A DNA stretch of 64,000 nt from Candidatus Kaiserbacteria bacterium (GTDB lineage: Bacteria; Patescibacteriota; Minisyncoccia; Phycocordibacterales; UBA2100): NCBI GenBank assembly GCA_016217925.1, contig JACRFK010000010.1, positions 4,784-68,783 on the forward strand, written 5' to 3'. The notes beneath the pieces are model-generated. The model saw only the letters and a list, made by a program, of their open reading frames with translations. It was not told the DNA's origin and ran no database searches. Both the position numbers and the translations under genes were made by a program. Below are positions 4,479 to 41,428 of the stretch, one piece after another. Within the stretch, counting starts at the first letter, position 1; every line of letters starts with the position of its first letter.

Positions 4479-5696
4479 TTACGCATTGACGACGCGGACT
4501 TTTTTCGCCGCTTGAGCTGCTTTTTTGCGGGCCTCGGCGACGGTTTTGCCCGTTGCGAGCGCGACGGCCATGCGGCGGTGACCTATAACTTCGGGTTTGC
4601 CGAAAATGCGGATGTGGGTGCCTTTGATTTTGAGCGCTTCGGCGACGCCTTCGTACTGCGGATTTTTCATATTACCGTGCGCAATTATTGCGACAGACGC
4701 TCCAGGTCGAAATTCGATACAGGCCTGCCCTTCGAAGCCTTGGCGAAGGAGGGGGATGGGGAGGTCGAGAATGGCGCGCACGTGGAGCTCCATCTCGCTC
4801 ATGGTCTGCGAAACCATCGTCACCATGCCGGTGTCGTGCGGGCGCGGGGAGAGTTCGGAGAACCACACGTTGTCGTCTTTTACGAAAAGCTCGACGCCGA
4901 AAATACCGCGGCCGTTCTTTCCACAGAGATTGCCGACAACTTTCCTTGCGATGTCCTGAGCTTTCTTGAGTGCCGTTTTCGTCATCGGCTGCGGTTGCCA
5001 CGATTCGCGGTAGTCGCCGTCTGTTTGGATGTGTCCGACCGGCGCGCAGTATGAGATGCCGCCTTTGTGCCGCACGGTCAGCAACGTAATTTCGTAATTA
5101 AAATCAATTTTGCCTTCCACTATCACTTTGTTCGTTTTGCCGCGTGCGCCCTCCATCGCGAACTTCCATGCCTTCGCCAAATCTTGCGGTTTTTTAGCCA
5201 TGGATTGGCCGTGTCCCGAAGATGACATCGTCGGCTTGATGAAGCAGGGGAATCCGACTGCCGCGGCTCCCGCTTTGAGTTCTTCGAGGCTTCCGGCAAA
5301 ACGGTACGGCGAGGTCGGCAGTTTCAAAGTCTCTGCGGCGAGCTGGCGGATGCCCTGCCTATCCATAGTGAGTCGTACCGCGCGGGCGGTGGGAATAACC
5401 CTCCAACCCTCTTTCTCGAGCTTCACGAGCTCGTCCGTCGCGATTGCCTCAATTTCGGGGACGATAAAATCAGGCTTCTCTTTCTGCACTACTTTTCTAA
5501 TAAGCTTGCCGTCGCGCATATTGAATACGTAGCTCCGATGGGCCACTTGCATCGCGGGGGCGTTTTCGTACCTGTCGCACGCGACGACCTCACAGCCGAG
5601 CCTTATCGCTTCTATTACGACCTCTTTGCCGAGCTCGCCCGAGCCGAGCAACATGAGTTTGACGGAGGAGGGGGTAAAGGGGGTACCGAATTTCAT
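4479..5696 (-). CDS. purT: formate-dependent phosphoribosylglycinamide formyltransferase (GAR transformylase 2)
   Basis: 405 aa, ATP-grasp. N-terminus ...VKLMLLGSGELGKEVVIEA... is typical of PurT and the length is canonical. Start CAT verified at 5694-5696. Confidence 0.9.
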   Translation of the reverse strand: MKFGTPFTPSSVKLMLLGSGELGKEVVIEAIRLGCEVVACDRYENAPAMQVAHRSYVFNMRDGKLIRKVVQKEKPDFIVPEIEAIATDELVKLEKEGWRVIPTARAVRLTMDRQGIRQLAAETLKLPTSPYRFAGSLEELKAGAAAVGFPCFIKPTMSSSGHGQSMAKKPQDLAKAWKFAMEGARGKTNKVIVEGKIDFNYEITLLTVRHKGGISYCAPVGHIQTDGDYRESWQPQPMTKTALKKAQDIARKVVGNLCGKNGRGIFGVELFVKDDNVWFSELSPRPHDTGMVTMVSQTMSEMELHVRAILDLPIPLLRQGFEGQACIEFRPGASVAIIAHGNMKNPQYEGVAEALKIKGTHIRIFGKPEVIGHRRMAVALATGKTVAEARKKAAQAAKKVRVVNA

Positions 5697-5723
5697 GCGC
5701 TCATCATATATACTGAGAGGCCT

Positions 5724-6434
5724 ATGGGCAAACCCAGGATTATCGTGTTCGCTTCCGGCAAAAGGAGCGGCGGCGGCTCCGGATTCGAGAACCTGGCACG
5801 CTCAAAAGAGCTCGATGCCGATATCGTTGCGGTTGTTTCCAACCACGAGCGCGGCGGTGTCCACGAACGTGCGGCGCAGCTCGGTATACCGTTCATCTAT
5901 TTTCCGGGACCGTACGACGTCGAACACTATCAAGAAGTTGTTCGTAAGTCGTTTGGAGCGGAGCATGCCCCGTTAGAGGGCGAAGCCTCTCTAATGGGGT
6001 GGAGCGCGCTCTCGGGTTGGTTACGAAAGGTCGAAGGGCTCGACCCGAAAAAGACCTTCAATATCCACCCCGCACTTTTGTCGCAACTGGACGGACGGTT
6101 CGCAGGACACGGCATGTACGGGCATCATATTCACGACGCGGTGAAGGCCGCACTTGATGCGGGAGAAATATCGGAGTCCGGATTTTCGATGCATTTCGTC
6201 ACGGAAGAAATGGACCGCGGTCCCGTCTTTTTCGAACACCGCGTACCGCTCAAACAGGGGATGACGGTGGAGGAAATTGCACACGTGGTAAACAAGGCGG
6301 AACACGAATGGCAGCCGAAGATAACCAACCTGGTCGTGCATCGACAGATACGCTGGGACGGCAAGAATCCCGCCTCCCTTACTGTTCCGGAAGCGTTTAC
6401 ATCCGTTCCCGTGGGCGGGAAAGAATCTATTTGA
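5724..6434 (+). CDS. purN: phosphoribosylglycinamide formyltransferase (folate-dependent, PurN-like)
   Basis: 237 aa from an internal ATG (aa 63 of track ORF 5538-6434; the upstream part overlaps purT on the other strand). PRIIVFASGKRSGGGSGFENL, NIHPALLSQLDG (cf. NIHPSLLP) and SGFSMHFVTEEMDRGPVF (cf. VHFVTEELDGGPII) are present. Confidence 0.8.
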   Translation: MGKPRIIVFASGKRSGGGSGFENLARSKELDADIVAVVSNHERGGVHERAAQLGIPFIYFPGPYDVEHYQEVVRKSFGAEHAPLEGEASLMGWSALSGWLRKVEGLDPKKTFNIHPALLSQLDGRFAGHGMYGHHIHDAVKAALDAGEISESGFSMHFVTEEMDRGPVFFEHRVPLKQGMTVEEIAHVVNKAEHEWQPKITNLVVHRQIRWDGKNPASLTVPEAFTSVPVGGKESI

Positions 6435-7109: not shown

Positions 7110-7427
7110 ATGTACACCAGTCTGAAATACCTAAATTTGTCGATAGGCGCTGTTGCCGTTGTGCTTAGCGTAACTGTCCCCATTGTCGATCTTGTCCGAA
7201 AGGGCAGTCTTGTTTGCAGCGATGTCATGTCAATATCGATTCTCATAGGAGGCCTCGTTTTGTTATTGGCAACGTATCTTATAGACAGGAGCGGTCTTGA
7301 AAGGAAGTATCTATATTCTCTTGCAATCCTTGTGTTAAGTTATCTTATCGTAGTCATTACGCATAGTGTTGTCCTATTCCTCTTCGGGTTAACAGGACGG
7401 GTTGGGTGTTCACTGTTTGTTGGTTAA
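7110..7427 (+). CDS. hypothetical small membrane protein (AT-rich)
   Basis: 105-aa hydrophobic ORF immediately 3' of tRNA-Leu. Its GC is clearly lower than the neighbouring genes. Confidence 0.4.
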   Translation: MYTSLKYLNLSIGAVAVVLSVTVPIVDLVRKGSLVCSDVMSISILIGGLVLLLATYLIDRSGLERKYLYSLAILVLSYLIVVITHSVVLFLFGLTGRVGCSLFVG

Positions 7428-7457
7428 TTGTAAATGGGGCCGCGTTGTAGATACCCG

Positions 7458-8003
7458 CTACAACTTCGTGTAGTGAAGCAATAGGCTGCCCCTTTCATTC
7501 AAGCGCTTTACCGATTCGAGTTTGAACTGTTTGGTGATGATTTTTGTTGACGCGAAGAGGTCGAGGCCCTGACCGAAGACCAGCGGCTCTATCGTGAGGT
7601 AGAGCTCGTCGAGCAAACCGCGTTCGAGAAAGTACGTGTAGGTATCCATACCGCCCAGAATGCCGGCGAGCTTATACGGTTCAAGCAATGGCCGGACATC
7701 CACACTTTCCGGATTGCACAAGAGAAGTTTTTCATCTTTGCGCTCGGTAGTAGCGACCGAGGTGGTGAGCACGATTCGGTTATATTTCCCCAGTTCCTTA
7801 CTTGCGATTTCGTGCGTGTTGTGCCCCACGACGATGATATCGGTGCGCTGCAGGAATTCGCGGAGGAATTGCTTGTCCTCAGGACTCGACCAATCAGTGA
7901 AATGATGATGGTGGCGCGCGATTTTGCCGTCGAGCGTCATGACGGCGATTGCTATACAGCGGGGCGTTTGCATGAGGCATTTTATCCCACTTCGCGCTTT
8001 CAT
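7458..8003 (-). CDS. dihydrofolate reductase-like protein (RibD C-terminal/DHFR-like family)
   Basis: 181 aa. The N-terminus IAIAVMTLDGKIA... is typical of RibD_C/DHFR-like reductases. Confidence 0.65.
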   Translation of the reverse strand: MKARSGIKCLMQTPRCIAIAVMTLDGKIARHHHHFTDWSSPEDKQFLREFLQRTDIIVVGHNTHEIASKELGKYNRIVLTTSVATTERKDEKLLLCNPESVDVRPLLEPYKLAGILGGMDTYTYFLERGLLDELYLTIEPLVFGQGLDLFASTKIITKQFKLESVKRLNERGSLLLHYTKL

Positions 8004-8040
8004 TGTAGGAGGTCTAAAATCTGGTATTGTCTGATTCTCT

Positions 8041-8754
8041 ATGCATGTCCGGCCTGTTAAGACCCGCGTTTTTAAGCAGGGGGAAGACCTCGTCGCTTTT
8101 ATTTGCGCTCACGTTAAAAAACTGAAAGATGGGTCAGTCCTTATCGTGACGTCAAAAATCGTTGCGCTTGCGGAAGACGCCGTTGTGCAGATAAATACTC
8201 CGCGCGCCAAAGAGGCGATAATCCGCGCTGAGTCCGATTGGCAGCTGCATGCCAAACACGGAAAGCTGACGCTCAAAGACGGACTCCTCATGTGGAACGC
8301 GGGCATTGATGAATCCAACGCGAAAGGCAACGTCATTCTATTGCCGAGAGACAGTTTTAGATCCGCCCAGAAACTTTTTTTCAAACTCAAACAACTTTAC
8401 AAAGTAAAGTTGATGGGGGTGGTAATCACTGATAGTCGCATCATGCCGCTGCGCGCGGGTGTTGTCGGTGTAGCGCTTGGCTACGCGGGATTCAAGGGTT
8501 TGCGGGATTATCGCGGCAAAAAAGATGTATTCGGCCGGAAGCTGAAGTTTACTCAGACAGACGTCGCGGACTCGCTCGCAACCGCCGCGATACTCGTGAT
8601 GGGCGAGGGGAAGGAGCAGCGGCCACTGTGCGTTATCGAGGGTGCACCAGTAGAATTTCGCGGGGAGATAAATCGCCGGGAGCTTGTTATCGCACCAGAG
8701 GACGATATGTACCGCCCACTTTTTAGAATAACCAAGAAAAGAACGAAGAGATAG
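8041..8754 (+). CDS. CofE-like protein (F420-0:gamma-glutamyl ligase family, PF01996-like)
   Basis: 237 aa. ...VVITDSRIMPLRAGVVGVALGYAGF... matches the CofE-family core. Confidence 0.65.
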   Translation: MHVRPVKTRVFKQGEDLVAFICAHVKKLKDGSVLIVTSKIVALAEDAVVQINTPRAKEAIIRAESDWQLHAKHGKLTLKDGLLMWNAGIDESNAKGNVILLPRDSFRSAQKLFFKLKQLYKVKLMGVVITDSRIMPLRAGVVGVALGYAGFKGLRDYRGKKDVFGRKLKFTQTDVADSLATAAILVMGEGKEQRPLCVIEGAPVEFRGEINRRELVIAPEDDMYRPLFRITKKRTKR

Positions 8755-31295: not shown

Positions 31296-31419
31296 CGTCC
31301 CGTTAGAAGTCACGGAAGTTCTTCTAGTGGTAAGCAGGTGGTAGCTTTACATATGGTCGATATCTTAGGAACGATAATTTTTGAGTCGGAAGCGCAGGCT
31401 TCCTACTTCTAACGGGATG
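31296..31419 (+). promoter_or_regulatory. inverted-repeat leader element whose 3' arm overlaps the start codon (shared 13-mer TTCTAACGGGATG)
   Basis: GCGTCCCGTTAGAAGT (31296-31310) pairs with ACTTCTAACGGGATGCGC (31405-31422). The internal hairpin GGAAGC-gcag-GCTTCC is at ~31389-31404. The same 13-mer precedes the gene at 55522. Confidence 0.35.
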
Positions 31420-33357
31420 CGCGTACTGGTACTCTCCACCGATTGGAACGCTTTTAATGAATCGAGCGCTGTTACCAAGCGCCTGCAGATGCAGGCGCGC
31501 ACGGTGGAGCGCATGGACGTCCTGGTGCCCCACGGGCCCCTACAGCTCGTCCAGATATCAGGAAACGCCTCGGTGCGGGGATTTGGCTTGGGACGCGTTT
31601 TGGGCTCTCTGCGCACTATTGCGGCCGGATGGCGACTCCAACGGCCGGATGTCGTCTCTGCGCAAGACCCGTTCTTGACCGGCTTCGTCGCATGGATAAT
31701 CGCGTGGATGCGGGGAAGCAAACTCCACCTGCAAGTACATACCGACCTTTTCGACCCGTACTTCGGCGGCCTCTCGCTCGGCAATCGCCTGAAAGTGTTG
31801 CTTGCGCGATTTCTTCTCACACGGGCGGATTCCGTGCGTGTTGTTTCCAAACGCATCGCAGATTCACTTGCTGCACGCGGTATCAAAGCGCCCGTTACCG
31901 TACTGCCTGTATTTGTCGACCTTGAGAATCTCAAAAAAACGGAACCGCTCGATAAGCGTGAGCGGTACCCGAATTTCAAGAAAATCGTTCTTGTTGTCGC
32001 ACGGTTGGAAAAAGAAAAGAATGTCGCGGCATCTGTCCGTGCATTTGCAGAAATTGCAAAAGCGGATACGAGCGCGGGGCTCGTCGTCATCGGGAGCGGT
32101 TCACAGCGTGTGCCACTCGAAACGCTCGCGCGCGAGCTCGGTATCACGGACAAAGTGGTGTTTGAAGGCGCGCAAGACCCGTTCCCGTTTTACAAATCCG
32201 CAGACCTCGTCCTCGTTACGTCGGAATACGAAGGATTCGGCATGGTCATCGTAGAAGCGCTTGCGGCCGGGTGTCCGGTCGTTTCCTACGATATAGGTCT
32301 TGCGCGTGAGGCGGGCGCTGTTATTGCGAAGGTCGGAGATTTGCCTCGTGTCGCCACCGCCGTTTTATCCGAAAGGAAGCGTGGCAAACTCACGCTCAGT
32401 TTTCCCAATGAAGCCGAATACCGCGAACTGTGGTTCGCCGATATCTCTCTTTCGGTCTCAGGCGTCGAAGCTCGCGCGGGAGAGAAGAAAAGCACCGGTG
32501 AGCAACCCACCGTGGGCTATGTGGGGCAGGGATTCATCGGCAAGAATTATGCCGATGAGCTCGAAAGCCGCGGCTTTAAAGTAGTCCGGTATTCGCTCGA
32601 AGAGCCGTATCGCAACAATAAAGACAAAATAAAAGATTGCGATATCGTTTTTATCGCGGTACCGACGCCGACTACACCCGACGGGTTTAGCGACACCATC
32701 GTGCGGCAGACGGTCGGGCTCGTGGGCGAGGGCAAAGTCGCGGTCATTAAATCCACCATGCTCCCCGGCATGACTGAAAAGATACAAAAAGAATTCCCGA
32801 AACAGGTCGTGATGCACTCACCCGAATTCTTGCGCGAGGCGACCGCCGCATACGACGCCGCGCATCCGGACCGCAACATCGTGGGTATTTGTACGGATAC
32901 ACCCGAAGTACGCGCGCTCGGGCAAAAGGTCATTTCTATTCTTCCGCCTGCACCATTTGAGCTCGTGTGCTCCTCAGTGGAGGCGGAATTCATCAAGTAT
33001 GCGGGCAATAACTGGCTCTATATCAAGGTCGTGTACGTCAACATCCTCTACGATCTTGTGCAGAAGCTCGGCGGCAATTACGAGCACGTGCGCGACGCCT
33101 TCGCGGCCGACCCTAGAATGGGCCGCTCGCACCTTGACCCGATACACGCGAGCGGACATGGCGGACCTCCCGGCCGCGGTGCAGGCGGGCATTGCTTCAT
33201 CAAAGATTTCGCTGCGTTCCGCTCGATGTATGAACAAGTGTTTCCGGAAGATAAAGCGGGCATTGAGGCACTGAAGGGAATGGAGGAGAAAAATGTGAAG
33301 CTTCTGCGTGATGCGCACAAAGACCTCGATTTGCTCGATGGCGTCTATGGGAAGTAA
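31417..33357 (+). CDS. fusion protein: GT4 glycosyltransferase (N) + truncated UDP-glucose/GDP-mannose 6-dehydrogenase-like domain (C)
   Basis: N-terminal GT-B carries the E-x7-E motif (YEGFGMVIVEALAAGCPVVS). The C-terminal ~290 aa has the nucleotide-sugar-dehydrogenase Rossmann GYVGQGFIGKNYA, VPTPTTPDG (cf. VGTPT) and catalytic-Cys motif GGHCFIKD (cf. GGSCFPKD). It lacks the C-terminal UDP-binding domain. Confidence 0.7.
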   Translation: MRVLVLSTDWNAFNESSAVTKRLQMQARTVERMDVLVPHGPLQLVQISGNASVRGFGLGRVLGSLRTIAAGWRLQRPDVVSAQDPFLTGFVAWIIAWMRGSKLHLQVHTDLFDPYFGGLSLGNRLKVLLARFLLTRADSVRVVSKRIADSLAARGIKAPVTVLPVFVDLENLKKTEPLDKRERYPNFKKIVLVVARLEKEKNVAASVRAFAEIAKADTSAGLVVIGSGSQRVPLETLARELGITDKVVFEGAQDPFPFYKSADLVLVTSEYEGFGMVIVEALAAGCPVVSYDIGLAREAGAVIAKVGDLPRVATAVLSERKRGKLTLSFPNEAEYRELWFADISLSVSGVEARAGEKKSTGEQPTVGYVGQGFIGKNYADELESRGFKVVRYSLEEPYRNNKDKIKDCDIVFIAVPTPTTPDGFSDTIVRQTVGLVGEGKVAVIKSTMLPGMTEKIQKEFPKQVVMHSPEFLREATAAYDAAHPDRNIVGICTDTPEVRALGQKVISILPPAPFELVCSSVEAEFIKYAGNNWLYIKVVYVNILYDLVQKLGGNYEHVRDAFAADPRMGRSHLDPIHASGHGGPPGRGAGGHCFIKDFAAFRSMYEQVFPEDKAGIEALKGMEEKNVKLLRDAHKDLDLLDGVYGK

Positions 33358-34399
33358 ACCGCAACGACTTCTCGTCGTCACACAGGTTGTCGATAGTACG
33401 GACCCGTTCCTCGGATTTTTTCACGGGTGGCTGGAAGAGCTTGCGAAGCATTTCGAGCACATCCATGTGATATGCCTCAAAGAGGGTGAACACAAACTTC
33501 CGGCGAATGTGCATGTTCATTCGCTGGGGAAGGAAAAAGGAGAGTCGCGCGGGAAATATGTTTTTCGATTTCTCGGATACGTCTGGAAATTGCGCGGCGA
33601 GTACGACACGGTCTTCGTGCACATGAATCAGGAATATATTTTGCTCGCCGGATGGCTCTGGAAGCTTTTGGGCAAGCGGATGTATATGTGGCGCAATCAC
33701 TACGCCGGCGGGTTTCTGACGGATATGGCCGCGATGTTCGCTGTGAAAGTATTTTGTACCTCGGCACATTCCTACACGGCAAAATACAAAAAGACAGTCA
33801 TCATGCCGGTCGGAGTGGACACTCAGTTATTTGCGCCGGGCGCTGGGTTCCGCATGCCACGCTCCATTTTATTCTTGAGCCGCTTCGCGCCCGCAAAAAA
33901 GCCGGATGTGCTGCTGGAAGCACTCGGAATACTTTCGAAAGAAGGCGTCCAATTCACGACGTCTTTTTATGGGACGGCTCTCCCGCAAGATACCGCGTAT
34001 CGTGAGAAGGTCATCAAGCGTGCACAGACACTCGGTCTCGGGAACTTCGTGAATTTTTACGAAGGTGTACCGCACACCCAAGCACCGGACATATTCAACA
34101 AGCACGAAATATTCGTAAATCTGTCTTCGAGCGGCACGTACGACAAGACGATGTTCGAGGCTGCCGCGTCCGGCTGCGTCGTCATCGCGGCAAGCAAAGA
34201 TTTTGCGACAGTTGCAGGTGAGCAGTCCCTTGTCGCTGAAGATGTAAAAGCGGTGGCGGATAAGTTGCGTGAGTTCCTTGCGCTCGCGGACGGTGCGCGT
34301 GCCACTCTTGCGGCGCAATTACGGGAGAAAGTACTTGCGGGACAGAGTCTGCCGTTTCTTGCGCAACGCGTAATAACCGAGATGTCAGAAAAAAAATGA
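33338..34399 (+). CDS. glycosyltransferase (GT-B, GT4-like)
   Basis: About 353 aa. The start is chosen at an internal ATG overlapping the upstream stop. Two-domain GT-B pattern, with the C-terminal FEAAASGCVVIAAS region. Confidence 0.6.
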   Translation: MASMGSKPQRLLVVTQVVDSTDPFLGFFHGWLEELAKHFEHIHVICLKEGEHKLPANVHVHSLGKEKGESRGKYVFRFLGYVWKLRGEYDTVFVHMNQEYILLAGWLWKLLGKRMYMWRNHYAGGFLTDMAAMFAVKVFCTSAHSYTAKYKKTVIMPVGVDTQLFAPGAGFRMPRSILFLSRFAPAKKPDVLLEALGILSKEGVQFTTSFYGTALPQDTAYREKVIKRAQTLGLGNFVNFYEGVPHTQAPDIFNKHEIFVNLSSSGTYDKTMFEAAASGCVVIAASKDFATVAGEQSLVAEDVKAVADKLREFLALADGARATLAAQLREKVLAGQSLPFLAQRVITEMSEKK

Positions 34400-37155
34400 T
34401 TACTATGCGATTCTGCTATTTCGGCATTTACGACCCTGAATTTTCGCGCAACAGGATTTATATGCGCGCTCTTCGCGATGCAGGGCACGAAATCATCGAA
34501 TGTAGGGACAACAGTCGAGGGTTGCTTAAGTACATCCGGCTGGTGCAGCGTCTCCGTGCCCTGAAAGGTTCGTACGACGTCATACTAGTCGGGTACCCCG
34601 GGCACATTGTAGTGCCTCTTGCGCGGCTCTTTGGCGCTGCTCCGGTTGTGTCCGATCTGCTAGGCTCTCTTTCGGACGCTGCGGAGCATACGTACGATGC
34701 CGGATTTTTTGTTCGGACGTGGTACTCATGGGTGGATCGACTTGCAGTTGCGTTCTCAGATGCCATCCTCGTCGACAGTGAACTTCAGAAGGAATATATG
34801 CAGCGTCGATATGGTAGTGGGAAGAAATATCGAGTTGTGTACACAGGGGCGGATGAAGAGGTATTCGGACCGCGTGGGGAGCGAGGTGTCACGCGCACTG
34901 AGCCATTTGTTGTGTTGTTCCGGGGCAGGCTTATTCCCCAAGCGGGCATCATGCACATACTGGACGCCGCAGAAGGTTTACAAAACGACAAACGTTTCGC
35001 ATTTCGGATCATTGGATACGGTCCATTGCTTGAGGCTGTACGTGAGCGGGCCGGCGGATTATCGAATGTAGAGCTTATCGCAGAGCACATTTCTTTTGAT
35101 GAGATGCGCCGTCTGATGCTTGATGCCGACGTGAGCCTCGGCCAATTTGGGGACAACGAGCGATCGGACCGCAACATACCGCACAAAGCATATGAGTCGA
35201 TCTCTATGGGTATTCCCTACCTTACAGCACGAGTGCCTGGGATATCCGAACTTCTTGAGGATGAGGTCTCGTGTCTTATGGTGCCGTTGGAGAACTCGGA
35301 AGCGATTAAAGCCGCTCTTGAGCGGCTTAGAGACGACCGCCCACTTGGAAAGCAGCTTGCAGAGATGGCGCGGGCGGTATACGAAGCGCATGCGTCGGCT
35401 CGTGTTATTGCTTCAGCGATTACGGCTGTCTCCGTCTCATGCGTCGAAGCAAAGAAAAAGCTGGCCAAACGAAGCTTAGAGTGGATCGGGAAGCGTGAGA
35501 TGGTGGTCGTACTTGTCCTGCTCGCGGCATTCGTAGCGATACGCCTCCCCGGGCTCTCTCTTCCATATCATCAGGACGAGGCAAAGATTGGAGAGATTGT
35601 GCGCTCGCATATGGTAGGCGCGCTTTCCGGGCACCCACCGCTAACAGAACTCTTGTACCTCTCTGCCGGCGATATAGTCGGCTCAGACCATTTGCGTCTC
35701 ATACCGCTTATATTTGGCGTTCTATCGGCCATTCTCTTGTATGCGATAGTCCGACGGAGGGCGGGATTGCATGCGGCCTACGCCTCTCTCGCGCTCTATA
35801 TCATCTGCATGTACGGTGTATTTGCCTCGCTGATGGTAGATACGGATGGGGCCGTGCTCCCGACACTTTTTCTCGCGGCAGTGTACGCATATGACCGTTT
35901 TCGTGATGCGGCATCCGCTCGTGTTTCGTATGTATGGCTGTCTGTTCTTGCGCTCGCGCTCATCGCCGGGTTTCTAACCAAGCTCAGTTTCGTGCTCGTC
36001 TTGGGAGCGCTCGCGCTCGATTACCTCTTCGAAGTGCGTCACAGGCTTACACGCAGGCTTCTCATCCGTGCAGTTTTCGCCGCTTTGGTTTGTGGGGTTG
36101 CGGCAGCTGTTGCACTCGCGAGCGCACACTTTTTTCTCCCTTCTTTTGACGTGAGCCAGACTATTCTGCACGCGCTCTCCTATGTGCGATTTGAAGGGCG
36201 CGGATATTTACAGATCCTGATACAAGCGGTGAAGGCGGTCTTCTACCTTTCTCCGCTCCTTCTCCTACCACTGGTGTTTCTCACGAAAGATACCTTCACA
36301 AAGAACAGGATATTTTTCGTCTACCTCGGCTTGGGCGCGTTCTTTTACTTTGTCCTATTTGATTTCTCTCAGGGAGCGCTCGATAAGTATTTGATGTATA
36401 CCATCGTGCCGCTCGCAGCTATCATGGGTACCATCTTCACCGATGCAATGCGCGGACTTACGGTGCGAGCTCTCGCGGCAGGATCTATTCTCGGAGCAAT
36501 GTGTGCGACATTGCTCGTCGCCCTCAACTTCCTCTCACCGAGTGTCATGCCGCTCTATCCGAAAACGGAATGGCTCTCTGCGATCGCAGCCGGGAATTGG
36601 AATATTCTCATGCCGTTCACGGGGGGCGACGGACCGATAGGATTTTATGTCTCGTTCCTCGTCATCGCCGCTGGATTCGGCATCTCCGCCGCTCTTGCTG
36701 CTCTCGCGCTTTTCGTACCGAAAGCGCGCGGTGCGCTTCTCGTCGCTCTTATTGTGGTCGGTGTAGCGTTCAACGGTATTTTCATCGAAGAGTATATTTG
36801 GGGCCGCATTAACGGCAGCGCACCCTCGGCCCTTCGGGCGAGTCTCGCGTACATTGCTAGTTCAGACGATGTGAAAAGTATTATTTCCCACGGGGAGATC
36901 GGAGCGTACGAGCTCAGAGGAATGGGCAAATTCAGCGGCAGATTTTATGCGGTCCCCGGTTACGAGGAAGGACACAAGGCGTTATTCTCGAAGTTTACCG
37001 GCGCATATCTGGTCGTGGGTGTGCCCCGCTTCAATGATGCAAGTTTTTACAGTAAGTTTTTCAGTACATGCACACCAATCTTCACGACTTCGTCCGGAGT
37101 CATCAACGCCTACGTATATGGCTGTGCAGGAAGCGATCCATACGCTATAAAGTAA
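34396..37155 (+). CDS. fusion protein: GT-B glycosyltransferase (N, ~370 aa) + ArnT/PMT-like GT-C polytopic membrane glycosyltransferase (C, ~550 aa)
   Basis: N-terminal GT-B carries E-x7-E (HKAYESISMGIPYLTARVPGISELLEDE). The C-terminal domain has about 12 TM segments. Its first extracytoplasmic loop carries the PMT_2/ArnT signature LPYHQDEAKIGEIVRSHM (cf. ArnT LPDETRYAEISREM). Confidence 0.7.
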   Translation: MITMRFCYFGIYDPEFSRNRIYMRALRDAGHEIIECRDNSRGLLKYIRLVQRLRALKGSYDVILVGYPGHIVVPLARLFGAAPVVSDLLGSLSDAAEHTYDAGFFVRTWYSWVDRLAVAFSDAILVDSELQKEYMQRRYGSGKKYRVVYTGADEEVFGPRGERGVTRTEPFVVLFRGRLIPQAGIMHILDAAEGLQNDKRFAFRIIGYGPLLEAVRERAGGLSNVELIAEHISFDEMRRLMLDADVSLGQFGDNERSDRNIPHKAYESISMGIPYLTARVPGISELLEDEVSCLMVPLENSEAIKAALERLRDDRPLGKQLAEMARAVYEAHASARVIASAITAVSVSCVEAKKKLAKRSLEWIGKREMVVVLVLLAAFVAIRLPGLSLPYHQDEAKIGEIVRSHMVGALSGHPPLTELLYLSAGDIVGSDHLRLIPLIFGVLSAILLYAIVRRRAGLHAAYASLALYIICMYGVFASLMVDTDGAVLPTLFLAAVYAYDRFRDAASARVSYVWLSVLALALIAGFLTKLSFVLVLGALALDYLFEVRHRLTRRLLIRAVFAALVCGVAAAVALASAHFFLPSFDVSQTILHALSYVRFEGRGYLQILIQAVKAVFYLSPLLLLPLVFLTKDTFTKNRIFFVYLGLGAFFYFVLFDFSQGALDKYLMYTIVPLAAIMGTIFTDAMRGLTVRALAAGSILGAMCATLLVALNFLSPSVMPLYPKTEWLSAIAAGNWNILMPFTGGDGPIGFYVSFLVIAAGFGISAALAALALFVPKARGALLVALIVVGVAFNGIFIEEYIWGRINGSAPSALRASLAYIASSDDVKSIISHGEIGAYELRGMGKFSGRFYAVPGYEEGHKALFSKFTGAYLVVGVPRFNDASFYSKFFSTCTPIFTTSSGVINAYVYGCAGSDPYAIK

Positions 37156-37158
37156 CCT

Positions 37159-38574
37159 ATGCACCTCAGTAAGACCGCGCGAGAGTATTTCGATGCACAG
37201 GCGGACGAGCGTCTCAAGTGGCGGCGCAAGAATCCGTATTACCATGACTCGCTCGAATCCTTCGTCGGGTTCCTTGTCCCGCGCGGCAGTTCGGTGCTCC
37301 ACGTCGGAGCCGACTCGGCGTCGCTCCTCAATCTGTTGGCCCCGGCCCGTGGGCTGGGTATCCACGCGAGCGCCCGCATCATAGGTGAGGTCAACAAGCA
37401 GGGGATTTTGCCGGGGCTCCAATTCAAACAGACGGAGCTCTCGCAAGTCAAAGGTGTGTTCGAATATGTTGTTATTTCAGACTTGCTCGGACACGTCGAT
37501 GATATTGAGATGCTTTTTCGGGAAGCGACAAGGCTCATCTCGTGGCGCGGCCGCATAGTGGTGACACAGCACAGCGCATTGTGGGGGCCGGTACTGCGCC
37601 TCGCTTCAGCGCTCGGACTTCGGGTGCCATATCGCTTGGAAAATTGGGTCTCACGCACTGACCTTGAGAATTTCGCGCACCTCGCGGGGCTGGAGGCGGT
37701 GCGGAGCGGCACGCGGATGCTCATTCCGAAACGCGTCCCATTCATAAGCACGTTCTTCAACGCCTACCTTGCGAATATTTTTCCGTTCACACGGCTCGGC
37801 TTGTATCACTACGTCGTCTTGCGCAAGCAGGACTCCCGCTCACCGATTCCCAACCCCTCGCTTTCCATTGTTGTCCCGGCACGTAACGAGGCCGGTATGA
37901 TAGAGCGCATTGTAAAAGAGTTGCCAACGCTCGGAGAGTTCACCGAGCTAATCCTTGTCGAAGGACATTCCAAGGATAATACGTGGCAAGAAATCCAACG
38001 TGTCGCAAAAGAGTACGGCGCGAAGAAGAAAATACTCATCGCACAGCAGGAGGGCAAAGGCAAGGGTGATGCGGTACGCAAAGGATTCGACATGGCGACT
38101 GGGGATATCCTTACTATATACGATGCGGATATGACCGTGCCTGCTCCGGACGTGGAAAAATTCTATCGGGCCCTTGTCGAAGGAAGGGGGGATTTCATCA
38201 ATGGCTCGCGGCTTGTGTACCCCCTTGAGAAACAATCTATGCAATTTCTTAACTTTCTTGCCAATAAGTTTTTTGGGCTCGCTTTCAGCTGGCTTTTGAG
38301 CTCGAAGTTGAAAGACACGCTCTGCGGCACGAAGATGCTGTGGCGCGAGGACTACAAAGAAATACAGGCGGGCCGCTCGTTTTTCGGCGACTTCGATCCC
38401 TTCGGCGACTTCGACCTACTCTTCGGAGCCGCCAAGCTCAACAGAAAGATCATTGATATGCCGGTCCATTACGGAGAGCGTACCTATGGGACGACGAATA
38501 TAGAGCGGTGGAGTCACGGATGGTTGCTTCTGAAAATGACCGTTTTTGCCCTGCGTAAGATAAAATTTGTGTGA
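37159..38574 (+). CDS. fusion protein: degenerate class-I methyltransferase-like domain (N) + Dpm1/GtrB-like GT2 polyprenyl-phosphate glycosyltransferase (C)
   Basis: The N-terminal ~215 aa are a paralog of the downstream MT at 38571 (YFDAQADERLKWRRKNPYYHD vs YFDAIAAQYDYWKKKNAYYHE). The SAM motif I is degenerate (VLHVGADSAS vs VLEIGCGTGD). The C-terminal GT2 has LSIVVPARNEAGMI and the DxD motif YDADMT. Confidence 0.7.
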   Translation: MHLSKTAREYFDAQADERLKWRRKNPYYHDSLESFVGFLVPRGSSVLHVGADSASLLNLLAPARGLGIHASARIIGEVNKQGILPGLQFKQTELSQVKGVFEYVVISDLLGHVDDIEMLFREATRLISWRGRIVVTQHSALWGPVLRLASALGLRVPYRLENWVSRTDLENFAHLAGLEAVRSGTRMLIPKRVPFISTFFNAYLANIFPFTRLGLYHYVVLRKQDSRSPIPNPSLSIVVPARNEAGMIERIVKELPTLGEFTELILVEGHSKDNTWQEIQRVAKEYGAKKKILIAQQEGKGKGDAVRKGFDMATGDILTIYDADMTVPAPDVEKFYRALVEGRGDFINGSRLVYPLEKQSMQFLNFLANKFFGLAFSWLLSSKLKDTLCGTKMLWREDYKEIQAGRSFFGDFDPFGDFDLLFGAAKLNRKIIDMPVHYGERTYGTTNIERWSHGWLLLKMTVFALRKIKFV

Positions 38575-39239
38575 CTTTTTCGGAAGACTACTTTGACGCA
38601 ATTGCCGCCCAGTATGATTACTGGAAAAAAAAGAATGCCTATTACCACGAGAATCTGAAACTATTGTACGGGCAATTCATCCCGAAAGGGGCGCGAGTTC
38701 TCGAAATCGGCTGTGGCACGGGGGACATCTTGGCACGCCTTGAGCCGAAAGAGGGAAGGGGGGTCGACGTGAGCGAAGAGATGGTGGAAATCGCACGGCG
38801 CAAATATGCGGGCAAATCGAATCTTCAGTTCGAGCGCGAAGATATTTTTGAAAGCACGAAAATGTTCGGATATCCGTACATTTTTCTTGCCGACGTGCTG
38901 GAGCATGTGGGCGGTCTCGAGAAATTTGTGCGACAACTTGCCGCCCGCACGGACTCGGGTAGTACGGTCGTTATCTCCGTCGCCAACCCGCTTTGGGAAC
39001 CGGTACTCATGCTCGCTGAGAAGCTCCATATGAAAATGCCCGAAGGCCCACACACACGCGATCCAATACAAGAAACGGAACGCATCTTCCGTGCATCCGG
39101 TTTTACCATCGTTGAACGCGGGTATCGGCTCCTCATTCCTAAGAAGATCCCTGGTGCCGATTGGCTTAATGCCCGATTCCATCACTTTCGGTTCTTTGCT
39201 CCGCTCGGTTTCGTTATTTTTTGGGTGCTCCGCCGATAG
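38571..39239 (+). CDS. class I SAM-dependent methyltransferase
   Basis: 222 aa. Intact motif I VLEIGCGTGD. GTG start overlapping the upstream stop (GTGA). Confidence 0.75.
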   Translation: MTFSEDYFDAIAAQYDYWKKKNAYYHENLKLLYGQFIPKGARVLEIGCGTGDILARLEPKEGRGVDVSEEMVEIARRKYAGKSNLQFEREDIFESTKMFGYPYIFLADVLEHVGGLEKFVRQLAARTDSGSTVVISVANPLWEPVLMLAEKLHMKMPEGPHTRDPIQETERIFRASGFTIVERGYRLLIPKKIPGADWLNARFHHFRFFAPLGFVIFWVLRR

Positions 39240-39699
39240 AAGGCATTACACCCTCGTGAGTATCGTGGAACACCAGGTGTTTGTAGCTGAAGTAGTTCAT
39301 CATGGCGATGAAGACACCGCTTATGAGCTGTGCCCCCAAGTAGTGAAGTCCCCCGTATTCAACAAGCACAAAGATAAGCGTTGTATTGATCCCAAGCCCG
39401 ACAAACACAATGGTCAAAAAGGTGAGTGCCTGCGCATACACATGATCTCTGGATACATCCTTAAACGTCCAGAGCTTTTGCATCGAAAAACTTACCCAAA
39501 AGGCGAGCATGAATGCAATTATCGATGAGAATACGTACCAGACGCTGAAGAAGTGAGTAAGGGAAAAGAGGGTTCCAAGGTTTACCAAAGTCGCAATACC
39601 ACCGGAGATACAGAATCGGATGATGCGCATCGGCGAAGGATACAGGGCGTTGGCGCGAGCGCGGACCTCTTTGATCAGGAGCAAGAGGTTCGCAATCAT
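39214..39699 (-). CDS. gtrA: GtrA-family membrane protein (polysaccharide synthesis/flippase accessory)
   Basis: 161 aa, 4 TM. RFCISGGIATLVNLGTLFSL is typical of PF04138. Confidence 0.75.
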   Translation of the reverse strand: MIANLLLLIKEVRARANALYPSPMRIIRFCISGGIATLVNLGTLFSLTHFFSVWYVFSSIIAFMLAFWVSFSMQKLWTFKDVSRDHVYAQALTFLTIVFVGLGINTTLIFVLVEYGGLHYLGAQLISGVFIAMMNYFSYKHLVFHDTHEGVMPSIGGAPKK

Positions 39700-39788
39700 A
39701 CGTAGGCGGAGTGTAGCATAGGACCTTGTTCTAGTTCGTTATTTCGCGGGATGATATAGTGTACCTCTAAACATTCTTACAGCACACC

Positions 39789-40766
39789 ATGTCTGATTTT
39801 TATACAGGAAAAAAGGTGCTCGTGACCGGCGGGGCTGGTTTTATCGGCAGCCACGTTGTAGAAATGCTCGTGGAGCGTGGGGCGCATGTCACCGTGCCGG
39901 TACGTTCAACGACCAAGACAGATTTTCTGGACAGCGTTCGTGACCGTATATCCATCGTCGAAGCGGACCTACGCGATCGGCCTCGTGTCGATGCGCTCAT
40001 GCAAGGTCAAGAGATCGTCATGAATCTTGCCGCCGCCAAGGGCGGGGGCATAGCACATAGTATGAAGCATCACGGGAGCCTCTTCCGCGACAACATGCAA
40101 CCCTATCTGCAAGTGCTCGATGCTGCGCGCGAGGCAGAGGTCGAGCGATTCTTGGTGGTGAGCTCGGCCTGCGTGTATTCACGTGAGGCGAGCAACCACG
40201 CGCTCGAGTCGGAAGGATTTTTGGGCGTGCCGGAAGCGGCCAATGCCGGATATGGCTGGTCCAAGCGTATGGAGGAATACGTGGGCCAAGCGTACGCAGC
40301 GGAGTTCGGTATGAAGGTCGCTATCGCGCGCATGTACAACGGATATGGTCCGCGAGACGATTTTTTCGCAGAATATAACCACGTCATCCCCGGACTCATT
40401 AAGAGGATATTCGAAGGTGAAAATCCGCTCGTCGTCTGGGGAACCGGCACGCAGACGCGCTCCTTCATATACGTCACCGACTTCGCCCGCGGTATCCTCC
40501 AGGTCTGCGAGAAATACGCCGTTGCTGACCCACTCAATATCGGGAGTGACGAAGAGATTTCCATTGGTGACTTGGCGCACCTTCTCATTGAGCTTTCGGG
40601 TAAGGAAGTGAAAGTCGAATTTGATACGACAAAGCCGGACGGGCCATTGCGCCGAAGCGCCGACACCAGCAGAGCTTTTGAGAAAATCGGTTTCCGCACC
40701 GAGGTGCCTCTGCGCGAAGGTCTGAAGAAAAGCATAGAATGGTATCAAGCAAACAAACCACAATGA
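39789..40766 (+). CDS. NAD-dependent epimerase/dehydratase (GDP/NDP-6-deoxyhexose reductase or epimerase-like)
   Basis: 325 aa. VLVTGGAGFIGSHVV and YGWSK (YxxxK). Confidence 0.75.
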   Translation: MSDFYTGKKVLVTGGAGFIGSHVVEMLVERGAHVTVPVRSTTKTDFLDSVRDRISIVEADLRDRPRVDALMQGQEIVMNLAAAKGGGIAHSMKHHGSLFRDNMQPYLQVLDAAREAEVERFLVVSSACVYSREASNHALESEGFLGVPEAANAGYGWSKRMEEYVGQAYAAEFGMKVAIARMYNGYGPRDDFFAEYNHVIPGLIKRIFEGENPLVVWGTGTQTRSFIYVTDFARGILQVCEKYAVADPLNIGSDEEISIGDLAHLLIELSGKEVKVEFDTTKPDGPLRRSADTSRAFEKIGFRTEVPLREGLKKSIEWYQANKPQ

Positions 40767-41428
40767 CCGTCACTCTTATCGCAGCGACACTCAATGAGCT
40801 TGAAGCCGCGAAGGTTGTCTTGCCGCGCATTGGCCGGAAGTATGTGGATGAGATCATCATCGTCGACGGCGGCTCGACCGACGGTACAGTCGAATTCTGC
40901 AAGAGCCAGGGATACACGGTTTTCCAACAGATTGAGCCCGGGTATGGCTCTGCTATGAAGGAGGCGATCGCGCGGGCGAGCGGGGATATCATTATCGAAT
41001 TTCCACCCGATGGAAATTCTATGCCCGAAAAAATCCCCGATGTCATAAGGAAATTGCAGGAAGGCTACGACTTCGTCATAGCGTCGCGCTATGCGCCGGG
41101 TGCGCGGAGCGACGACGACGACTTTCTCACGGCGATAGGGAATTGGGGGTTTACATTCGCGACGAATCTTCTCTTTTGGAGTTCGTATACTGACGTTCTC
41201 GTAGGTTTTCGCGGCTATCGCAAGAGTGCATATGAGAAGCTTGATATGACAGCCACAAGTCTCGATTGGTCAATGCAAATGCCCATACAATTCAGGAAAA
41301 AGAGATTGCGGGTAGCTGATATTCCCGCAATTGAGCCGAAGCGGATCGGCGGTGTGAGAAAGATGCGCCCATTCAGAACGGGCTGGCGGATTCTCAAGAT
41401 ACTCATTAGAGAGCGTTGTAGTCTATAA
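40763..41428 (+). CDS. GT2 glycosyltransferase (Dpm1/GtrB-like, short)
   Basis: Internal ATG overlapping the upstream stop (ATGA). LIAATLNELE...IIIVDGGSTDGT...FVIASRY. Confidence 0.75.
   Translation: MTVTLIAATLNELEAAKVVLPRIGRKYVDEIIIVDGGSTDGTVEFCKSQGYTVFQQIEPGYGSAMKEAIARASGDIIIEFPPDGNSMPEKIPDVIRKLQEGYDFVIASRYAPGARSDDDDFLTAIGNWGFTFATNLLFWSSYTDVLVGFRGYRKSAYEKLDMTATSLDWSMQMPIQFRKKRLRVADIPAIEPKRIGGVRKMRPFRTGWRILKILIRERCSL

Follow-up and report, generated by a model that had tools for sequence, protein, structure and literature searches.

Organization of the locus

Why does a Dpm1-like GT2 glycosyltransferase carry a methyltransferase (MT) domain with a degenerate SAM-binding motif, when an intact MT is encoded by the very next gene? 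This question is raised by a locus in a 64,000-nucleotide stretch of contig JACRFK010000010.1 from a Candidatus Kaiserbacteria bacterium (assembly GCA_016217925.1), which we call the window and whose coordinates are used throughout. The preliminary description suggested that an MT had been duplicated and that the fused copy, having lost SAM binding, was kept as a noncatalytic module on the glycosyltransferase, perhaps for substrate recognition or as a scaffold, with the intact neighbor providing methylation.

The 471-residue fusion protein is encoded on the plus strand at 37159..38574, as described before, and consists of an MT-derived module (residues 1 to 225, 37159..37833) and a GT2 domain of GT-A fold (residues 233 to 471, 37855..38571) of the Dpm1/AglJ/GtrB/ArnC type. 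Its stop codon shares a 4-nucleotide overlap (GTGA) with the GTG start of the stand-alone class I SAM methyltransferase (222 residues, 38571..39239, plus strand). Upstream, the fusion gene is separated by 3 nucleotides from a plus-strand gene (34396..37155) whose product joins a GT4 (GT-B) domain to a GT-C domain (PMT_2) that has 10 or more transmembrane (TM) helices. On the minus strand, the gene (39214..39699) for a small membrane protein of GtrA-like type, which may be a flippase for polyprenyl-phosphate sugars, is convergent with the stand-alone MT gene and overlaps its 3' end. The fusion protein is 100% identical to an NCBI entry named "glycosyltransferase [Candidatus Kaiserbacteria bacterium]."

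The fused module keeps the MT fold and lacks the SAM determinants

Over 221 aligned positions, BLASTP matched residues 7 to 223 of the fusion to the stand-alone MT with 29% identical and 51% positive residues (E=2e-30), much more than chance would give, which bears out the paralogy proposed for the first ~215 residues. The N-terminal signature proposed for the pair is indeed present in both proteins, except that the gap from the second Ala to the Trp is five residues long and not four (YFDA.A.....W..KN.YYH). Pfam recognizes Methyltransf_23 at residues 40 to 181 of the fusion and Glycos_transf_2 at residues 236 to 366; the stand-alone MT scores above threshold with five SAM-MT models, but the loose PF13489 is the one such model that accepts the fused module.

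The reported replacement of VLEIGCGTGD by VLHVGADSAS can be read directly in the DNA, in frame in both genes. The stand-alone MT has an intact motif I (V43 to D52, 38697-38726, plus strand) and post-I Asp. In the fused copy, motif I (V46 to S55, 37294..37323, plus strand) has H48 in place of the conserved Glu and D52 and A54 in place of the second and third Gly, so that in the resulting H48-V-G50-A-D52-S-A54 the first Gly is all that is left of the E/D-x-G-x-G-x-G pattern. The acidic residue after motif I, which stands at the end of β2 and takes part in binding the SAM ribose, is gone as well, a loss that the preliminary description did not mention, GVDVS having become GIHAS with H69 (codon 37363..37365, plus strand) at the Asp position. 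The replacements E48H, G52D, G54A and D69H thus affect all canonical SAM determinants, and the fused module has probably lost SAM binding.

Unlike the motif, the predicted fold is complete. The AF2 model of the whole fusion reached a pLDDT of 87.9 and a pTM of 0.88, and in the module β1 to β7 of the seven-stranded, Rossmann-like class I MT fold were all modeled with pLDDT above 90. The pTM value also suggests a defined packing of the MT-like and GT2 domains. In Foldseek searches the N-terminal half retrieved class I MTs, the closest being the orphans TT1324 (2gs9) and TM1293 (1vlm) at a target-normalized TM score of about 0.8, together with UbiG (4kdr), ChlM (4qdk) and PE N-methyltransferase (8ys9). 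These orphan and lipid- or quinone-modifying enzymes share 13 to 22% identity with the module, from which their SAM-binding residues have disappeared.

That the motif reflects a sequencing or assembly error, or that the gene is a pseudogene in decay, is refuted; we found no point in favor of either. The reading frame through the region is uninterrupted and unambiguous, the NCBI protein is identical, and the same degenerate motif recurs in 38 protein clusters from independent assemblies and in metagenome contigs. The purifying selection reported below likewise speaks against decay.

The MT-GT2 fusion is old and the degenerate state belongs to one clade

MT-GT2 fusions are spread over many phyla, at no fewer than 593 species-level loci, and their MT motif is nearly always intact. 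Homology is full-length and collinear, with 44 to 100% identity over residues ~5 to 471, in more than 120 protein clusters and at 80 genome loci. Members from Nitrospira, Levilinea saccharolytica, Anaerolinea, Chitinophaga, Tannerella MAGs and many CPR bacteria have the same domain order and full-length identities of 44 to 59%. The fusion is therefore old and widespread, and a comparison across genomes, which had been suggested as a way to find where it arose, points to an ancient origin with an intact motif. Our literature search on characterized MT-GT2 fusions and on CPR glycan methylation returned nothing specific, and no biochemical data for any family member.

We divided the fusions into group A with an intact fused MT, group B with the degenerate motif of the Kaiserbacteria-type clade, and group C with a truncated module. 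The degenerate state defines that single clade of 38 protein clusters, which reads H-x-G-A-D-S and G-I-H-x-S where the fusions of the taxa listed above have E-x-G-[CS]-G-x-G and G-x-D-x-S. Precomputed Pfam matches follow the same division, with 5 to 8 SAM-MT models for group A fusions and PF13489 alone for group B. A regular-expression search flagged 11 non-CPR fusions without GxGxG; in these the middle Gly alone is different (GCATG, GCSTG and similar) and neither acidic residue is lost, so that they are not comparable to group B. In group C, found in other CPR lineages, ~55 to 60 residues are missing, which in the structural model corresponds to removal of β2-β3; the N-terminal module is nevertheless modeled as folded and packed on the GT2 domain (pLDDT 80.8, pTM 0.79). 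A single loss event shared by groups B and C received a neighbor-joining support of only 54/100. In all fused groups, W142, W163, D168, P190, P194, S197 and N201 in the C-terminal half of the module are invariant.

The degenerate module is under purifying selection

In group A, E48, G52 and G54 are each present in 40/40 sequences and the post-I Asp in 39/40. The replacing residues are fixed or nearly so in group B: the modules of the 37 clusters compared share ~65% identity, yet H48 and D52 are found in 35/37 and S53 and H69 in 37/37. Position 54 varies within the clade (G54A/P/S), and position 95, the former adenine contact, drifts freely. We compared the identity of the module with that of the GT2 domain, and the MT-to-GT2 ratio was 0.79 both within group A and within group B and 0.59 between them. 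The module's dN values lie at 0.11 to 0.25; since at 64 to 87% protein identity dS has reached saturation, with values that exceed 1.2 or are undefined, omega of ~0.05 to 0.18 is rough and can be used only to say that dN is far below dS. The degenerate module is under purifying selection. Together with the loss of its SAM determinants, this agrees with the idea, put forward in the preliminary description, of a retained noncatalytic MT-derived module on a Dpm1-like GT2.

The stand-alone MT is an ancient paralogue and not a local duplicate

The part of the original proposal that does not hold is the local duplication with a neighbor taking over. All fused MT domains are separated from the stand-alone MTs, which group together in a clade (50/50 bootstraps) and are closer to group A modules (33% identity) than to group B modules (27%); this rules out that the stand-alone MT arose by recent tandem duplication of the fused one. 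The best NCBIfam match of the stand-alone MT in the window is UbiG. A stand-alone MT lies directly downstream of intact (L001, L012, L018), degenerate (L003, L089, L091) and truncated (L002) fusions. Because intact fusions also have this neighbor, the pairing predates the motif loss and is independent of it.

Among group B loci, the two genes are direct neighbors in the window and at L003/L004, L089 and L091, and ~10 further contigs, judging from their matching lengths, probably carry both. In five others with the same motif and 75 to 90% identity (L085, L086, L088, L090 and L092), the stand-alone MT is absent within 1.5 to 3.5 kb, and most group C loci also have no such gene nearby; in these genomes it could lie elsewhere. 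At the level of the neighborhood, the dead and the live paralogue are thus not obligate companions. Compensation of the fused-MT loss by gain of the neighbor was rejected, as the neighbor stands beside intact fusions too and is missing beside several dead ones. From the same distribution we conclude that the dead module is not kept on account of the live MT, an accessory that is optional.

The GT2 domain in a glycosylation context

The best PDB sequence match of the GT2 domain was Pyrococcus furiosus DPMS (E=6e-12), with whose DAD the family-invariant, metal- and nucleotide-binding DxD motif D322-A-D324 (38122..38130, plus strand) is aligned. Foldseek placed DPMS, ArnC and GtrB closest to this GT-A fold. 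Among NCBIfam models AglJ (TIGR04182) scored best (1e-28, 100 bits against a cutoff of 325), and the fusion stayed below all curated cutoffs, including those of AglJ, ArnC, PgfS and PpgS. A GpgS-like soluble glycosyltransferase was considered and rejected, because the scores were much weaker than those of DPMS and AglJ and the GtrA/GT-C context does not fit. The motif FDPFGDFD is invariant in the fusion family and specific to it.

No TM helix is predicted in the fusion (maximum 19-residue Kyte-Doolittle mean, 1.20). Dpm1 enzymes without a TM helix exist, human DPM1 being one. The module contains an aromatic-rich hydrophobic segment at residues 193 to 211, and its hydrophobicity, together with its likeness to MTs acting on lipid substrates, suggests that it may take part in membrane association.

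PF00535, PF04138 and PF13231 matched genes of this neighborhood, and a GT2 synthase, a GtrA flippase and a GT-C gene are all located within 5.3 kb. The arrangement recurs at L002, L003 and L007 to L014, and a GT-C gene lies directly upstream at every group B locus seen and at most group C loci. In non-CPR genomes the fusion is usually not beside GT-C or GtrA genes. Polyprenyl phosphate is the probable substrate of the GT2 domain, sugar transfer to it from an NDP-sugar being suggested by the GtrA and GT-C neighbors alone.

The framework for such a locus is the three-component GtrA/GtrB/GT-C system of extracytoplasmic glycosylation (Mann & Whitfield 2016; Kelly et al. 2024, PMC11127046). The window protein shares the GT-A fold with DPMS (5mlz), GtrB (5ekp), ArnC (8vxh, 9bhc) and archaeal AglJ/AglD, the DAD with DPMS, and the linkage to GtrA-like and GT-C genes with Gtr systems. 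Unlike DPMS, GtrB and ArnC, it has no TM helices, and the ~225-residue N-terminal MT-derived module has no equivalent in these three or in AglJ and AglD. The locus also departs from the three-component systems in that its GT2 is fused to a (pseudo)methyltransferase, its GT-C is fused to a cytoplasmic GT4, at least one MT lies within the locus, and the host is a CPR bacterium.

Weighing the explanations for the retained module

We consider it most likely that the module is a pseudo-methyltransferase with a structural role in a polyprenyl-phosphate glycosyltransferase that has no TM helix and works in a GtrA/GT2/GT-C glycosylation system, and taken as a whole we hold this account somewhat more probable than not. 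The ancestral fused MT would have been active and, in the Kaiserbacteria-type clade, would have lost SAM binding through E48H, G52D, G54A/P/S and D69H. The resulting pseudo-methyltransferase would then have been retained as a structural part of a GT2 enzyme that has no TM anchor of its own, packing rigidly on the GT2 domain while its conserved C-terminal half may provide elements of the membrane interface or for the lipid substrate. The GT2 domain would put a sugar on polyprenyl phosphate, GtrA would flip the loaded carrier, and GT-C would transfer the sugar outside the membrane. The intact neighbor, an ancient paralogue, would be an optional accessory that methylates when present.

A different reason for retention, which sharpens the preliminary proposal, would be that the dead module docks the active stand-alone MT and brings it to the GT2 product for methylation of the lipid-linked sugar, so that a heteromer explains why the module persists. 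The 4-nucleotide overlap is typical of translational coupling, the two genes are neighbors at the group B loci named above, and the C-terminal half conserved in both paralogues (LWEPxL, LiPK.iP) may be a dimer interface. Inactive MT paralogues that regulate active ones are a general precedent, as in METTL14/METTL3, Trm6/Trm61, DNMT3L/DNMT3A and the trypanosome PRMT prozymes (reviewed in PMC10908127). As in these pairs, a paralogue that has the MT fold but a degenerate SAM site is kept under selection beside an active one; unlike in them, the dead copy forms one polypeptide with a glycosyltransferase, and the live paralogue is absent nearby in several close relatives. The five group B loci and most group C loci without the neighbor, and its company with intact-MT fusions, make such an adaptor seem unlikely to us. 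Somewhat more doubtful is that the cofactor pocket was repurposed, with His48, Asp52/Ser53 and His69 forming a new site for a metal, phosphate/pyrophosphate or a nucleotide-sugar and the module being regulatory or substrate binding. Both acidic SAM ligands have become His, a typical metal or phosphate ligand, and the identity ratios fit a phase of rapid change separating group B from group A, then constraint. The four replacing residues are almost invariant while position 95 drifts freely; such conservation exceeds what the mere death of a pocket would require, and hints that the site may have a new function beyond a structural role. However, a His-Asp-His network could equally fill the pocket and stabilize the fold in place of the cofactor, and group C dispenses with the whole region, which means that the role of the pocket is not essential to the family.

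That the fused module is still an active MT, binding SAM through noncanonical residues, we regard as highly improbable. The entire MT fold is predicted with high confidence, G50, S71, D108, G111 and D115 are still conserved in the module, and some genuine MTs have a divergent motif I. Against this, the acidic position preceding motif I, two Gly of GxGxG (the second and the third) and the post-I acidic position have all changed together. Judging from class I MT structures, Asp in place of the second Gly would be expected to clash with SAM; moreover, the adenine-contact position is without constraint, and the loosest Pfam MT model is the only one that matches.

Implications for the family

Three-component glycosylation and pseudoenzyme domains are known concepts, and the window protein is a lineage-specific variant of them, not a new kind of system. 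Its family, with MT-GT2 fusions in hundreds of bacterial species, is uncharacterized, and its members carry either an intact MT, a pseudo-methyltransferase with a remodeled pocket, or a module whose SAM-binding half is deleted. This series of three states is a natural structure-function experiment that indicates which residues and segments to test, and it argues for a second, noncatalytic job of the MT module for the glycosyltransferase. The Kaiserbacteria-type clade adds a bacterial, covalently fused case to the mostly eukaryotic list of pseudo-methyltransferases. If the pocket had been repurposed after all, this would be neofunctionalization of a SAM pocket within a fusion enzyme, regulating or feeding the attached glycosyltransferase. 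The finding is relevant to how CPR bacteria build and methylate their surface glycans.

The fusion and its stand-alone paralogue

The fusion gene (37159-38574, plus strand; 471 aa) shares a 4-nt overlap (GTGA) with the gene of the stand-alone methyltransferase (MT) that follows it (38571-39239, plus strand; 222 aa, GTG start). Pfam places Methyltransf_23 at residues 40 to 181 of the fusion and Glycos_transf_2 at 236 to 366, while the stand-alone protein passes five SAM-methyltransferase models. A Candidatus Kaiserbacteria bacterium protein listed at NCBI matches the fusion at 100% identity, which assigns the window to a CPR (Patescibacteria) genome. The fusion falls below all NCBIfam cut-offs, so that it lies outside every curated family. 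BLASTP aligned fusion residues 7 to 223 with the whole stand-alone protein (29% identity, E=2e-30), bearing out the paralogy proposed in the preliminary description, which also quoted both motif I strings correctly (VLHVGADSAS in the fused copy, VLEIGCGTGD in the intact one); the shared N-terminal signature is present too, but its Ala-to-Trp spacing is five residues, not four. Beyond that description, the post-I Asp is also gone in the fused copy (GVDVS to GIHAS). A GtrA-like gene runs convergently on the minus strand, and the last 26 nt of the stand-alone MT gene (39214-39239) lie within it.

Distribution of the family and loss of the SAM motif

The best 120 homologues of the fusion fall into three groups. 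Group A (40 clusters, about 470 aa, 52 to 59% identity to the window protein) carries the canonical E-[IV]-G-C-G-T-G-[DE] and G-x-D-x-S; group B, the window's own clade (38 clusters, about 470 aa, 64 to 100%), carries VLH[VIA]GADSxxLL ... GLGIHxS; and in group C (42 clusters, of 398 to 448 aa except for one of 471 aa, 54 to 68%) the SAM-motif region is deleted. Scanning one genome per species gave at least 593 loci with full-length fusion relatives, in hosts including Nitrospira, Bacteroidota, Chloroflexota, Verrucomicrobiota, Elusimicrobiota, Deltaproteobacteria, Planctomycetota and an archaeal MAG, where identity is 44 to 49% over residues about 5 to 471. Motif I and the post-I Asp were present essentially always in these fusions, and the few motif I exceptions changed the middle Gly alone and kept both acidic residues. 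In the neighbor-joining tree of the GT2 domain, support is 100/100 for the split between CPR proteins and all others and 98/100 for the monophyly of group B; group A is basal, and groups B and C tend to cluster (54/100). Given the near-universal motif in the relatives and this tree, the fused MT was ancestrally intact, its SAM determinants being lost within CPR. The cross-genome comparison that the preliminary description had proposed thus portrays an old fusion, spread over many phyla, whose motif loss is derived. Some group C proteins (clusters P0042, P0045, P0048 and P0054) retain '(I/V)EVGD(S/T/N)S' at the position of group B's 'HVGADSAS', a remnant hinting that the deletions may have arisen in an already degenerate, group-B-like ancestor. 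One Omnitrophota MAG (L043) has tandem MT-GT2 fusion genes (4944-6380 and 7166-8596) with a small generic MT between them, the first fusion reading GCHTG in motif I and the second GCGTG.

Constraint and remodelling of the pocket

Identity in the MT module divided by identity in the GT2 domain comes to 0.79 within group A, 0.79 within group B and 0.59 between A and B, which indicates a burst of change, then restored constraint, in the module. Between group B genes, module dN is 0.11-0.25, and omega is roughly 0.05-0.18 for the module vs 0.02-0.07 for GT2, with synonymous sites saturated. By the identity ratios and the low dN, the degenerate module that the preliminary description saw as retained on the GT2 enzyme is under selection. 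The replacement residues are almost invariant across group B: position 48 is H in 35/37 (E in 40/40 of group A), 52 is D in 35/37 (G, 40/40), 53 is S in 37/37 (T, 37/40) and 69 is H in 37/37 (D, 39/40); position 50 is G in both (37/37 and 40/40), and position 54 is variable in group B (P/A/S; G in 40/40 of group A). The pocket of the dead module therefore looks, at the level of residues, remodelled rather than decayed. Position 95, the former adenine contact, is among the most variable group B columns, and residual SAM binding by the degenerate module seems unlikely.

Predicted structure

The AlphaFold2 model of the fusion, built on a 76-sequence alignment, has a mean pLDDT of 87.9 and a pTM of 0.88, with the full β1-β7 MT fold predicted for the fused module at pLDDT above 90. 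As the chain has two domains, so high a pTM implies that the modelled module packs on GT2 in a defined manner. The Foldseek matches of the C-terminal half are DPMS, ArnC and GtrB; those of the N-terminal half are small class I MTs (2gs9 and 1vlm, TM about 0.8), among them the lipid-substrate enzymes UbiG, ChlM and PE N-methyltransferase. The DAD motif of GT2 (322-324) is invariant and aligned with that of DPMS. Hydrophobicity gave no TM helix in the fusion protein, the most hydrophobic stretches being the GT2 interface helix 363-381 and the aromatic-rich module segment 193-211; from similarity and context, the fusion is proposed to work like Dpm1/GtrB-type synthases but without TM anchors. In the model of a group C protein (P0077; pLDDT 80.8, pTM 0.79), the N-module is still folded, keeping the N-terminal helices, β1 and β4-β7 without β2-β3, the adenosine-binding half. 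The residues that never vary across the fused groups are found in the C-terminal half of the module.

At residues 409-419 (window about 38383-38415), the GT2 domain carries the invariant motif FFGDFDPFGDFD, which falls in a loop modelled with lower confidence (pLDDT about 65-76). Not known from DPMS or GtrB, the motif is specific enough that the whole MT-GT2 family was searched for with it.

Glycosylation locus and neighboring methyltransferases

GT-C, GT2 and GtrA-like genes are all present at the window locus (Pfam), with methyltransferases embedded. Judged by these domains, the locus appears to encode a complete three-component extracytoplasmic glycosylation system (PMC11127046 for the framework): GT-C, GT2 as the putative polyprenyl-phosphate-sugar synthase and the GtrA-like protein as the putative flippase. 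A GT-C gene lies immediately upstream of the fusion at every group B locus seen and at most group C loci. In the window (34396-37155, plus strand) it encodes a 919-aa protein with a cytoplasmic GT4 (GT-B) fused to GT-C (PMT_2) and at least 10 TM helices; the GT4/GT-C fusion recurs in loci L003, L004 and L091, with GT-C alone in the close relatives L085-L088 and L090 and a GtrA-GT-C fusion instead in L089. A 658-aa ORF (31381-33357, plus strand, TTG start) is an apparent fusion of GT4 and a UDP-glucose/GDP-mannose dehydrogenase-like domain, whose 645-aa L003 counterpart carries PF03721 and PF00984.

The stand-alone MTs (S family) make up a clade of their own, separate from every fused module (50/50 bootstraps), with 33% identity to group A modules, 27% to group B and 26% to group C. 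The gene immediately after the fusion is an S-family MT at loci of group A (L001/L006, L012, L018, L048), group B (window, L003/L004, L089, L091) and group C (L002), and about ten further group B pairs are suggested by contigs of matching length. None occurs within 1.5-3.5 kb of the fusion at five group B loci (L085, L086, L088, L090, L092), whose fusions are 75-90% identical and share the same dead motif, or near the fusion at most group C loci. Its own clade, its place beside fusions of all three groups and its absence from those five loci contradict the idea of the neighbor as a recent compensating copy; it is an ancient paralogue, best read as an optional accessory.

The Pfam scan found GT2 and cupin genes downstream of the fusion in L085, L086 and L090, followed by an epimerase in L085 and L090 and a C-methyltransferase in L085. 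What follows the fusion is a cassette that can be swapped (window 38571-41428; L085, L086, L090), one version having an S-family MT, minus-strand GtrA and epimerase (L003 adds an aminotransferase and GT2), the other a GT2, cupin and short epimerase. At the loci covered for this gene, namely the window, L003/L004 and L085, a C-methyltransferase (PF08421/PF08484) comes after the cassette; both the window and L003/L004 have a GT2 ahead of it.

Directly downstream of many fusions, at operon-like spacing, stands a generic class I MT (L017, L022, L029, L034, L039, L054, L055, L061, L067), which is no S-family orthologue (profile scores 18-56 vs >200). Since these loci belong to non-CPR or mixed phyla, a second MT adjoining the fusion seems a recurring theme beyond CPR.

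Role of the fused module

On the best-supported reading, the fused MT turned into a pseudo-methyltransferase in the Kaiserbacteria-type clade and was probably kept for its structural integration with the TM-less GT2 enzyme, whether by packing or by elements of the membrane interface or for the lipid substrate. The dead module could possibly serve as an adaptor for the neighboring MT, an idea weakened by the group B loci without such a neighbor. Given its fixed His/Asp/Ser/His cluster, the former pocket could also be a repurposed binding site.

The fusion belongs to a large MT-GT2 fusion family that has no name, and for which a literature search found no paper. Pseudo-methyltransferases are a known concept (PMC10908127), to which the fusion adds a bacterial, covalently fused example whose family offers intact, remodelled and deleted states as a natural series.
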